The notes under the pieces are model-generated. The model saw only the letters and a program-made list of their open reading frames with translations, searched no databases and was not told the DNA's origin. Shown here one piece after another: positions 4,041 to 11,873 of a stretch of 64,000 nucleotides of DNA; position 1 is the stretch's first letter; the number at the start of each line of letters is the position of its first letter. Both the position numbers and the translations under genes were made by a program. This stretch comes from a virus. The stretch lies in the IMG/VR virus record IMGVR_UViG_3300028902_000264; one strand, 5' to 3'.

Positions 4041-4271
4041 ATGAGCATGAAAACCCCTCGGATGTTCGTTTTAGGCAATCCAACAGACCGCTGTTCTTTT
4101 GTTTGGCTTGGGGAGCCTCCTGAAAAATCAGACAAGTTTTATTCAACATTCTCCAGGTTTAAAGAATATGAGATTAAAACCATCCAAGACAACAAGGATG
4201 GAACATTTGATATTAAACTAAGAAATGTAAATTTCACATACCAAAACATTAAACCTTCTTCAAAAGGATAA
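4041..4271 (+). CDS. Hypothetical protein
   Basis: ATG at 4041 with GGAG SD, preferred over the longer ORF call at 3957. Confidence 0.55.
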   Translation: MSMKTPRMFVLGNPTDRCSFVWLGEPPEKSDKFYSTFSRFKEYEIKTIQDNKDGTFDIKLRNVNFTYQNIKPSSKG

Positions 4272-4277
4272 ACTCAA

Positions 4278-5384
4278 ATGAAACAAGAAGATGTGGATTC
4301 TGTTCTATCAGAAGATTTAAAAACAAGTGAGATAATCATATCTTCTTTTTCACTGTCTGATCTTCAAACAAAACTCGAAGAGGTTGAACACAAACTTGGT
4401 TTACCAAGATATATTAACGACAAGAAAGAATATATTTCTCTTGCTAAAGAACATTCTCTTCTTTCCTCACAAGTTGATTCGATTAAATCTTTTATTGAAG
4501 AACGAGAATGGATTTCTCTTCTAAAAGAAGAAGGTTCTGTTGAGTTAGAAGATGCCGAGAAGTTTCATAAATCGGTTGAAAAACAACAACAGCAAATTCT
4601 TCTTTCAGAAGAAGATGACCATAAAAGTGCTTATGTGGAAATAAATTCTGGCGCTGGGGGGGATGATGCTTGTGATTTTGCCGAGTCTCTTATGAAGATG
4701 TATTTGAAATGGGCATTCAAAAATGGATTTGACTATGATATTCTTTCTCAAGTAGACGGTGATGTTGCGGGAATTTCTTCTGCGGTATTAGAAATTCGGG
4801 GCTATAATGTTTATGGAATGTTAAAGTCCCAAGTTGGTGTTCATAGAATTAAAAGAATTTCTGAGTTTTCTTCAAAAGATAAACGAGAAACAAGTTTTGC
4901 TTCTGTTGATGTTATTCCAATTTACGAAGAAGGTTCTGTCGAAGTTAAAATTCAAGATAAGGATATTGAAATTCAAACATTTCGAGCTGGCGGCAAGGGA
5001 GGACAAAATGTTAACAAAGTTGAGTCTGCGGTTCGTGTAATTCACAAACCGACTGGAATTGCAATCGTTTGTCGCACGGAACGAGATCAAATTAAAAACA
5101 AAAAGACAGCCCTTTCGATGCTTCAAGTAAGGTTAAACCAGCTCGAACAAGATAAAATTGATGCCGCTCAAGCAGAAAAAGAGGCAAACAAAAAAGATGT
5201 TTCGTTTGGCCACCAAACAATAACATATTCAACTTCTCCTTTAACTTATGTTAAAGATGAAAGAACAGGATACCAAACATTTAATGTCGATTCTGTGTTT
5301 GCGGGCAATATTGATGAATTTATTCAAGAATATCTCAAGTGGCTCTCAACAACAAAACAACAACAATCAAAAAAAGGAGTATAA
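4278..5384 (+). CDS. prfB: Class I peptide chain release factor, RF2-like, divergent decoding motifs
   Basis: [36 protein letters not shown] (GGQ intact), [14 protein letters not shown]. Full-length 368 aa with no frameshift. Confidence 0.92.
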
Positions 5385-5386
5385 AA

Positions 5387-5731
5387 ATGCGTAGCAAAAA
5401 AGGATTCTCTCTTCTCGAAAGCATAATTGGTATTACTATCATTGGTGTATTTTTCGTTGGATTTTCTATGGCTGTCGGCAAAGGTTGCATGAATTCTTCT
5501 GAATCAGCAACACAAGCCGCAACAAGATATGCTGGTACGTTTCATCCAGAGTGGCAATCTCCAAGAGTAGTTTGTCAAGGATATGATACGGATGGAAATG
5601 GGTATGTTTCTTGCACAATTGGTGCAAGCGGGCACCAACCCGAATCAATTGAATGTCCCGCAGCTCTTTCTTTCAATTCGGAATGTCGAGTTACAAGATT
5701 GACAATTCCAACTCAAACCAATAGCAATTGA
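5387..5731 (+). CDS. Prepilin-like (type IV pilin N-methylation motif) protein
   Basis: MRSKKG|FSLLE (G-1, F+1, E+5), then a hydrophobic helix and a Cys-rich domain containing DTDGNGYVSC. AGGAG SD. Confidence 0.75.
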   Translation: MRSKKGFSLLESIIGITIIGVFFVGFSMAVGKGCMNSSESATQAATRYAGTFHPEWQSPRVVCQGYDTDGNGYVSCTIGASGHQPESIECPAALSFNSECRVTRLTIPTQTNSN

Positions 5732-10314: not shown

Positions 10315-11484
10315 ATGCGCACCAGCCCAACGTTAAATCACCTTTTGTCAAATCCAATCAGTTCCTTGACACTTCGAGGTGTTTATCCAACACTCGATAA
10401 TTCAAAGAAGTTTTGTAATTTGGATTATGACCAAATAGAGGCAAAGAGCGGCAATCAAATTGTTGAGGAATGCCGCGGATTGGTGATTTGTAAACCTGAT
10501 GGTTCTGAATTCAAGTCAGATTTTTCTGATTTTGGAGAGTTTATTGTATGTTGCCGCCCAATGAAAAGGTTTTATAATTATGGTACTGGTGGAGCTGCGG
10601 TGCTAGATTATACCAAGGTTTATTACATGGAAAAACTTGATGGATCTTGCACCAAAGTTTGGTGGGATCATATTAATAATGAATGGGCGATCGGAACAAG
10701 AGGAACGGCAAAAGCCCATGTGAAAATTGGAGGAATGCACAAAGATTCTGAATTCACATTTACAACCCTGTTTAAAACAATCGTAAAAAATTTTTCTTCC
10801 TTTGTTCAAGAGTTGGACAAAGAATATACCTATTTGTTCGAACTGTGTTCTCAGTGGAACCAAGTGGTTGTAAACTATCCAGAACCATTTATTAGCCTTC
10901 TTGCAGTTATTCACACCAAAACAGGTCAAGAAAAAAACATTTGGAATCTTCCTGAGTCTACTTTTTATTCAAAAGTTAAGCGATACGAAATCTCAACTTT
11001 TGAAGAGATTTTTTCTTTTCTTGAAAAAGCTGATCCTTCAAAGTTTGAAGGATTTGTTGTCATGGATGATGAATTCAACAGAATTAAAGTAAAACACCCT
11101 GGGTACAATTCCTTGAACGCAATGCGTGTTTCTTTTGTGAGCACAAGAAATATTGTTGAATCGATTTTGCTTGGAACCATCGACGATGCAATGTGTGTTG
11201 TTTCCCCTTCTATTAAAGAAGATTGTGAAAAAATTATACAACAGGTTTCCGACTACATTCGAGAAAACGAAGAGGTTTGGCAAGAACTTAAAACAAAAGG
11301 TCTCTCAAGAAAAGAATTTGCGGTTCTCTGTCAAGAAAGAAAGCTTCCTCTTTCTTGGTTTATGAACCTGTATGTAGGAAAGTTTGAATCATTTAAAGAT
11401 GCTTTTGTTTTGGCTGGCAAAACAAAACAAGGGACTTACTCGGACTCATACCTCGACACTATCTACTCATTGGTTTCAAAATGA
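10315..11484 (+). CDS. RNA ligase, T4 Rnl1-like
   Basis: MKRFYNY, EKLDGS, IGTRG, YLFEL, EGFVV, RIKVKHPGY. Confidence 0.85.
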   Translation: MRTSPTLNHLLSNPISSLTLRGVYPTLDNSKKFCNLDYDQIEAKSGNQIVEECRGLVICKPDGSEFKSDFSDFGEFIVCCRPMKRFYNYGTGGAAVLDYTKVYYMEKLDGSCTKVWWDHINNEWAIGTRGTAKAHVKIGGMHKDSEFTFTTLFKTIVKNFSSFVQELDKEYTYLFELCSQWNQVVVNYPEPFISLLAVIHTKTGQEKNIWNLPESTFYSKVKRYEISTFEEIFSFLEKADPSKFEGFVVMDDEFNRIKVKHPGYNSLNAMRVSFVSTRNIVESILLGTIDDAMCVVSPSIKEDCEKIIQQVSDYIRENEEVWQELKTKGLSRKEFAVLCQERKLPLSWFMNLYVGKFESFKDAFVLAGKTKQGTYSDSYLDTIYSLVSK

Positions 11485-11873
11485 AACAAGTGAAAAAACA
11501 ACACAAACTTGATAAGAAAATTATTCAACTTCTTGAACAGAAAAAACCTTACAAGATTTTTATTGATGATGTTAAAACACCTAACATGGTTTTCTCTGGA
11601 GAGGAAACCGAAGGGTGGACGGTTTGCAAGTCTTCTCAAGAGGCAATAAACTTGGTTCAGGCAAATGGTTATTTGCCGCAATCAATTGCATTCGACCATG
11701 ATCTCGGCGGCGAAGATACCTCAATAAAGTTTATTGTTTGGATGGTTAATGCCCATCTCGATGAAAGAATCAAAGGCAAAGTCCCAGATTTTTCTGTTCA
11801 TTCAGATAATCCTTGCGGAAAACAAAACATTGTTTCGAAAATGAATTCGTGGAAAAAAATCTCCGAGCTCTAA
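11481..11873 (+). CDS. Cyclic-phosphate-processing receiver (REC-like) domain protein
   Basis: KIFIDDVKTP, SIAFDHDLG, VHSDNPCG. Coupled to the RNA ligase. Confidence 0.8.
   Translation: MKQVKKQHKLDKKIIQLLEQKKPYKIFIDDVKTPNMVFSGEETEGWTVCKSSQEAINLVQANGYLPQSIAFDHDLGGEDTSIKFIVWMVNAHLDERIKGKVPDFSVHSDNPCGKQNIVSKMNSWKKISEL

Follow-up and report, generated by a model that had tools for sequence, protein, structure and literature searches.

A release factor gene of the RF2 type, carried by a jumbo phage, was found at positions 4278–5384 of the stretch of DNA analysed here (64,000 nt, hereafter the window). By comparison with its homologues the gene is a real and conserved RF2 variant, the altered specificity of which is a prediction. 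In the explanation that we favour, and to which we would give an even chance, the product is a stop-codon-dependent factor that has lost or weakened its reading of UGA and terminates at UAA, perhaps also at UAG. Somewhat more tentatively, we propose that on at least two occasions a captured RF2 was re-tuned in jumbo phages, through convergent changes at Glu128, Val190 and Pro194, into UGA-blind factors, one reading UAA only (or UAA and UAG) in the lineage described here and the other an RF1-like amber reader, and that the prfB frameshift gate was rewritten to match each. Loss of UGA reading, if true, would mean that stop-codon specificity has changed in nature.

The gene and its genomic setting

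The gene (plus strand, as are all window features of the gene given below) encodes 368 amino acids and four domains in one continuous frame, without an internal stop or a frameshift site, and a Shine-Dalgarno-like AGGA (4265–4268), presumably functional, lies 9 nt before the start codon. The best NCBIfam match of the protein was prfB (TIGR00020) with 343 bits, below the cut-off of 370, followed by scores of 231–233 bits for prfA and 108 bits for prfH. RF2 structures were the top matches both by sequence and by fold, and an AlphaFold model (pLDDT 82) contained domains 1 to 4, the helical domain 1 included. Profiles, sequence and fold searches and the model collectively place the protein in the class I release factor fold, nearer to RF2 than to RF1. 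Compared with the orthologue in contig L001, domain 2 displayed a dN of 0.04 and a dS of 1.0 (dN/dS ~ 0.04) and the catalytic domain a dN of 0.03, values indicative of strong purifying selection on the gene.

The source genome is complete (390,884 bp, terminal repeats, 33% GC) and holds no second release factor, making the 4278–5384 gene the sole one; a class Ib tRNA synthetase was likewise not found in the whole genome. Genome-wide stop usage was 299 TAA, 135 TGA and 39 TAG, that is, around 63% of phage mRNAs end in UAA and around 30% of genes in TGA. The preliminary description of this DNA had held that all three stops are in use and that recoding does not explain the gene, and this was confirmed: translation with code 15 (TAG) or code 4 (TGA) gave no gain in coding density, and no coding or read-through signal was seen after any stop type. 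Termination at a sense codon was rejected as well, with no codon missing or depleted; in 70 of 70 comparisons, orthologous genes ended within a few codons, each at a standard stop.

Several further features of the setting were recorded. Directly 3′ of the RF2 gene (5387–5731) lies a gene with a prepilin-type N-methylation motif (PF07963) that only the closest relatives retain, and at 149–1387 the window carries an ATP-dependent DNA ligase with a mini-intein, seemingly missing from the orthologues in L001, L005 and L029 (384 aa). A phage-encoded IF3 (G000:C1:1057-1299, L027) is located ~ 6 kb upstream of the release factor gene across the genome end, in an order shared by L001. In two unrelated phage lineages a SAM-dependent methyltransferase gene directly precedes the release factor gene (L201:613-1242, L021:635-1228). 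Elsewhere in the genome, a 13-kb region (G000:C1:302734-316066) scores low for coding, contains four tRNAs and could hold non-coding RNA genes.

Residues at the decoding sites

Residues are numbered as in Thermus thermophilus RF2 and were mapped by alignment. Two homologue searches yielded a clade of 23 proteins (43–99% identity), which was compared with 169 other RF2 matches. Every clade contig examined was phage-like; scans of IMG/VR returned no clade members, and GenBank phages contained distant RF2s only.

The motifs lie where the preliminary description had placed them. At the helix-5 tip (4650–4679), both glycines and Asp131 are kept, and Thr127 is replaced by Asp, Glu128 by Asp and Trp132 by Phe; the latter two changes are fixed in the clade, position 127 varies there (D/V/T), and Asp at position 128 also occurs in 63 of 169 bacterial RF2 matches. 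The tripeptide reads SEF in place of SPF (4860–4868), with Ser and Phe invariant and the middle residue variable in the clade (E/A/R/K). Pro194, present in 169 of 169 other RF2 matches and in 137 of 142 diverse representatives, is lost throughout the clade. In KRETSF (4881–4898) Arg201 and Thr203 are retained and His202 is replaced by Glu, which is fixed in the clade and also found in RF2 of Planctomycetota (commonly) and Myxococcota; a role of His202 is described in the literature (PMC5681627). Ile315 (5220–5222) occupies the site of a near-invariant domain-4 Arg, which is I, K, V or M in the clade and R in all 169 others. The catalytic GGQ (4998–5006) is intact and invariant.

The change missed in the first reading of the sequence is Lys192 (4851–4853), which aligns with Val190 of RF2 and Gln185 of RF1 in the third-base pocket. 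Lys was present here in 23 of 23 clade members and Val in 165 of 169 other matches; the RF1 sequences compared have Gln at the equivalent position. No bacterial-context match carried Lys190 when GTDB was sampled with one RET-containing pattern (80 loci), and the single GTDB match that did (L125) is a phage-like contig within a MAG. Val190→Lys is the most distinctive change of the clade. It has been proposed that Val190 keeps G out of the third position, a base that RF1 reads through Gln185 (PMC5776981).

Gly125, Gly126, Asp131, Arg191, Ser193, Phe195, Arg201, Thr203 and the GGQ are kept across the clade, and the residues given as base contacts in the papers cited (helix-5 Gly, SPF Ser, Arg201 and the Thr after His) are unchanged; the roles of residues are taken from secondary citations. 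It had been suggested that three reading elements were turned acidic as one feature. This does not hold: the base contacts persist, positions 127 and 194 vary as described, the net charge of the recognition loop (+3) is ordinary (3.6 ± 1.0 in others), as is that of domain 2, and excess acidity is confined to the helix-5 tip (−4 compared with −2.3 ± 0.6 in others). General acidification of the decoding head was rejected on the same grounds. The G7 run (4656–4662) within the helix-5 tip, described earlier as encoding the altered GGD segment, is absent from relatives that still have the Asp, and as a phase-variable switch it was likewise set aside as unconserved.

Against the hallmarks of RF1, the protein has an RF2-length loop instead of the longer one, Ser-x-Phe instead of PxT and Lys at the Gln185 site; against those of RF2, it lacks the SP(F/Y) tripeptide (SxF across the clade), Val or Ile at 190 and a UGA-gated frameshift. 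It shares with bacterial RF2 (prfB, TIGR00020; PMC12421855) the four-domain fold, the GG tip, the Ser and Phe of SPF, Arg201, Thr203 and GGQ, and differs from it in being phage-encoded, in having Val190, His202 and Trp132 replaced by Lys, Glu and Phe, respectively, and in lacking Pro194. Neither Glu202 nor SxF could be retained as a unique mark, both occurring in bacterial RF2s; RET or SxF is present even where a Planctomycetota or Myxococcota genome has just one RF2. In Myxococcota genomes the sole RF2 combines SRF or SKF with Glu202 and Asp128, and SP(F/Y) accordingly fails in some housekeeping RF2s too; three MAGs of this phylum (L156, L164, L177) have a sole chromosomal RF2 with SRF or SKF, Ile190, Glu202, a shortened loop and a normal TGA gate. 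With respect to whether SEF and RETS are conserved in relatives, then, Glu202 and the SxF frame are, and the middle residue of the tripeptide is not; the possibility that the same substitutions belong to canonical RF2s is borne out in part, by SxF and RET in housekeeping bacterial RF2s with a UGA gate.

Frameshift gates in related genes

Many relatives of the phage gene retain the +1 frameshift site of prfB (SD-N3-CTT-stop), behind a leader of 21–32 codons and at the same place as in bacterial RF2 genes. In the window gene the corresponding site (Phe24, 4344–4352) aligns with the gates of P0016 and P0018 and contains no stop and no internal Shine-Dalgarno sequence. The earlier statement that autoregulatory frameshifting is lacking is correct for the 4278–5384 gene itself, and overlooked that close relatives still carry the gate. 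UGA-gated +1 frameshifting occurs in 64% of bacteria. Of 8164 bacterial prfB gates, 98.6% are TGA, 1.4% TAA and none TAG (PMC12421855).

Genes combining Lys190, SxF and Asp128 displayed a CTT-TAA gate in all four sequence types for which the DNA was inspected (P0016 type, P0018, P0027 and P0122), one of which (P0018) has the same residues as the phage RF2 at the decoding positions listed above. Genes with Lys or Gln at 190 together with SPY and Glu128 had CTT-TGA in six of six types (P0044, P0050, P0194, L052, L125, P0284). The sister phage genes that keep SPY share a supported clade with the TAA group (96/96), P0284 being unrelated, and the TAA group itself may represent a single event (support 57/77). 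GC content did not separate the gate groups (24–43% for TAA, 32–43% for TGA). Two of the TGA-gated phage RF2s, P0050 (L012:9895) and P0044 (L014:5175), have the Gln190 of RF1 and yet keep SPY and the TGA gate, and are candidates for omnipotent factors.

It was predicted that a change of Val190, loss of the Pro and Asp128 would together go with a gate other than TGA, and the unrelated P0280 (L201; Gln190, SAF), when subsequently read, had CTT-TAG-C. This gene is a member of a second lineage, which comprises ~ 60 proteins and is marked by Gln or Cys at 190, His191, SxF (SEF included) and Asp128, and in which TAG gates were found in L201:1305 and in the IMG/VR jumbo phages L202 and L203:4952; five more N-terminal read-ins are consistent with TAG. 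One TAG-gated IMG/VR jumbo phage (G007) uses the standard code with ~ 30% TAG stops, and recoding was rejected for it. The TAA-gated and TAG-gated lineages stand apart in the tree. No RF2-type gene gated by TAG is among the 8164 bacterial cases (PMC12421855), and we regard the second lineage as a finding in its own right.

Myxococcota RF2s with Asp128, SxF, Glu202 and Ile190 keep TGA gates, as do phage genes with Lys190 and SPY, and consequently no single change explains the switch. The evidence amounts to two independent gate switches with six internal controls. Compared with bacterial prfB, the gate is TAA in relatives of the phage gene, TAG in the second lineage and lost in the 4278–5384 gene.

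Possible specificity of the phage factor

Were the gate autoregulatory as in bacteria, its stop codon would report what the factor itself reads, and the factors would have shifted from UGA towards other stops, UAA (with or without UAG) in the present lineage and UAG in the second. Asp128 and the remodelled loop may weaken the reading of G at the second position, and Lys190 may reshape the third-base pocket, position 190 tuning the third base. A broadened RF2 is known to cost mis-termination at UGG (PMC7530605), which is also a possible reason for the toxicity of excess RF2 (PMC12421855). A factor blind to G at the second position would be unable to mis-terminate at UGG, which would let this sub-lineage drop the gate and make the factor constitutively; for phage mRNAs, with their predominance of UAA ends, it could provide extra termination capacity while avoiding the UGG risk of excess RF2. 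Trp codons, at 1.0–1.1%, are not depleted, as expected if UGG is unread. Altered specificity, raised in the preliminary description, is supported in this way, though neither the evidence (gate codons) nor the direction (away from UGA) is the one that had been proposed.

Several points count against a loss of UGA reading. The independent switches number only two, and no single change accounts for them. The gene studied here is gate-less, the argument passing through its relatives, and, as the main caveat, gates can be read by host factors. With ~ 30% of gene ends being TGA, and mostly TGA in the relative L010, such a phage would depend on host RF2. Finally, the genome carries an amber-anticodon tRNA, which fits poorly with reading of UAG. 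This tRNA, outside the window (G000:C1:61455-61527, plus strand; L022:956-1028), is well formed (Rfam tRNA, 60 bits), has anticodon CUA, resembles an amber suppressor and has an identical copy in IMG/VR contig 3300028845_000223 (L025); no tRNA-Trp was present in the ARAGORN list of this standard-code phage. A jumbo genome, an RF2 of its own and an amber-anticodon tRNA are shared with the TAG-recoded phages Lak and Agate (bioRxiv 10.1101/2021.08.26.457843). However, the Lak RF2 keeps Val190, SPY and Glu128, and the present genome has the standard code and no TAG read-through.

Two alternatives strike us as unlikely, and to the same degree. In the first, UGA is still read and Lys190 additionally lets in G as the third base, giving a broadened factor for all three stops with a UAA gate that senses total termination capacity. 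The proposed role of Val190 as a G3 filter (PMC5776981), the pairing of RF1's Gln190 with a TGA gate in sister phage RF2s, the use of all three stops by the phage and the retention of Ser193 and Asp131 are in keeping with this. However, a gain of UAG reading by RF2 variants comes with mis-termination at UGG (PMC7530605), and no depletion of Trp is seen here; Arg201, likewise linked to the exclusion of G3, is retained; and it stays unaccounted for that gates leave TGA only together with changes of Pro194 and Glu128.

In the second, the protein is an ordinary UAA/UGA RF2 in which the substitutions are drift tolerated in a phage lineage, the gate changes being neutral or serving to sense host factors. 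All core contacts are kept, SxF, Asp128 and Glu202 are present in sole bacterial RF2s, tripeptide mutants can function in vivo (PMC3974865), the clade uses TGA heavily, and 1.4% of bacteria are themselves TAA-gated (PMC12421855). Drift does not readily accommodate a Lys190 that is invariant over 43–99% identity and absent from the sampled bacterial-context matches, or the convergent change of the same sites in a second lineage gated by TAG, a codon never seen there in bacteria.

The preliminary description had instead proposed a codon-independent rescue factor (PrfH-, ArfA/RF2- or ArfB-like) working with phage RNA ligases against ribotoxins, which we now consider improbable. Peptide release on ribosomes cut at A1493/G1494 is among the defining properties of PrfH. 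Like PrfH of the PrfH-RtcB2 system (PMC9304027, PMC1586002), the phage protein is an RF2 homologue with an altered anticodon loop and an intact GGQ, with His202 and Pro194 both changed. However, PrfH has no domain 1 (~ 200–230 aa), GP for GG, SxY with a 3-residue gap or shortened loop, and an rtcB2 operon (PMC1586002, PMC9304027), while the phage protein has 368 aa with domain 1, keeps GG, shows no gap relative to RF2 and scores 108 against the TIGR03072 cut-off of 167. RtcB (PF01139) was not found in the complete genome, with controls positive. There is no conserved basic C-terminal tail of the kind with which non-stop rescue factors of the ArfB or PrfH-CT type fill the mRNA channel (the C-termini are short and variable; ArfB model 39 against a cut-off of 100), base-contact residues are invariant, and relatives with identical decoding residues are stop-codon-gated. 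The three RNA-ligase-like genes reported in the window do exist (PF09511 at 10315 and PF09414 at 49525 exceed the cut-off, which PF09414 at 34507 narrowly misses), and the T4-type ligase, the only one nearby, lies 5 kb from the release factor gene in several close relatives; it is a neighbour by synteny that a number of clade loci lack, and no neighbouring gene is common to the whole clade, which argues against the partnership. At 10315–11873 the T4 Rnl1-like ligase is followed by a cREC-domain gene, a pair kept in L001 and L029, the cREC gene of L005 having no ligase beside it.

Equally improbable is a weak or decoy factor occupying terminating ribosomes, or one needing a phage protein for activation: several otherwise invariant residues, the domain-4 Arg among them, did change together, but the catalytic domain is strongly constrained (dN 0.03), and a dedicated partner gene was looked for and rejected, none being common to the clade loci.

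Neither natural RF2 variants at Val190 nor TAA- or TAG-gated phage RF2 genes were treated in any paper returned by a literature search of incomplete coverage. Changed codon preference on an RF2 scaffold is known from laboratory variants, namely E167K, R213I and D329A/G (PMC7530605) and the UAA-biased RF2.B3 with S205P and E170K (PMC11903333). Those involve other residues, and the phage changes are natural, clade-fixed and under purifying selection, with a specificity that is predicted only. The determinants of RF1 versus RF2 specificity beyond the tripeptide are still argued, laboratory swaps having been partial or toxic. With Val, Gln, Lys or Cys at 190, SPY or SxF, and a gate of TGA, TAA or TAG, the phage genes form a series supplied by nature, through which the question becomes directly testable with few proteins. 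Engineered S205P RF2 costs fitness in one-stop-codon recoded Escherichia coli (PMC11903333), where a natural UAA-only factor, if true, would be useful. More divergent RF2 representatives changed at 190 and/or Pro194 were also encountered (P0291, P0316, P0206, P0307, P0310 and P0332).
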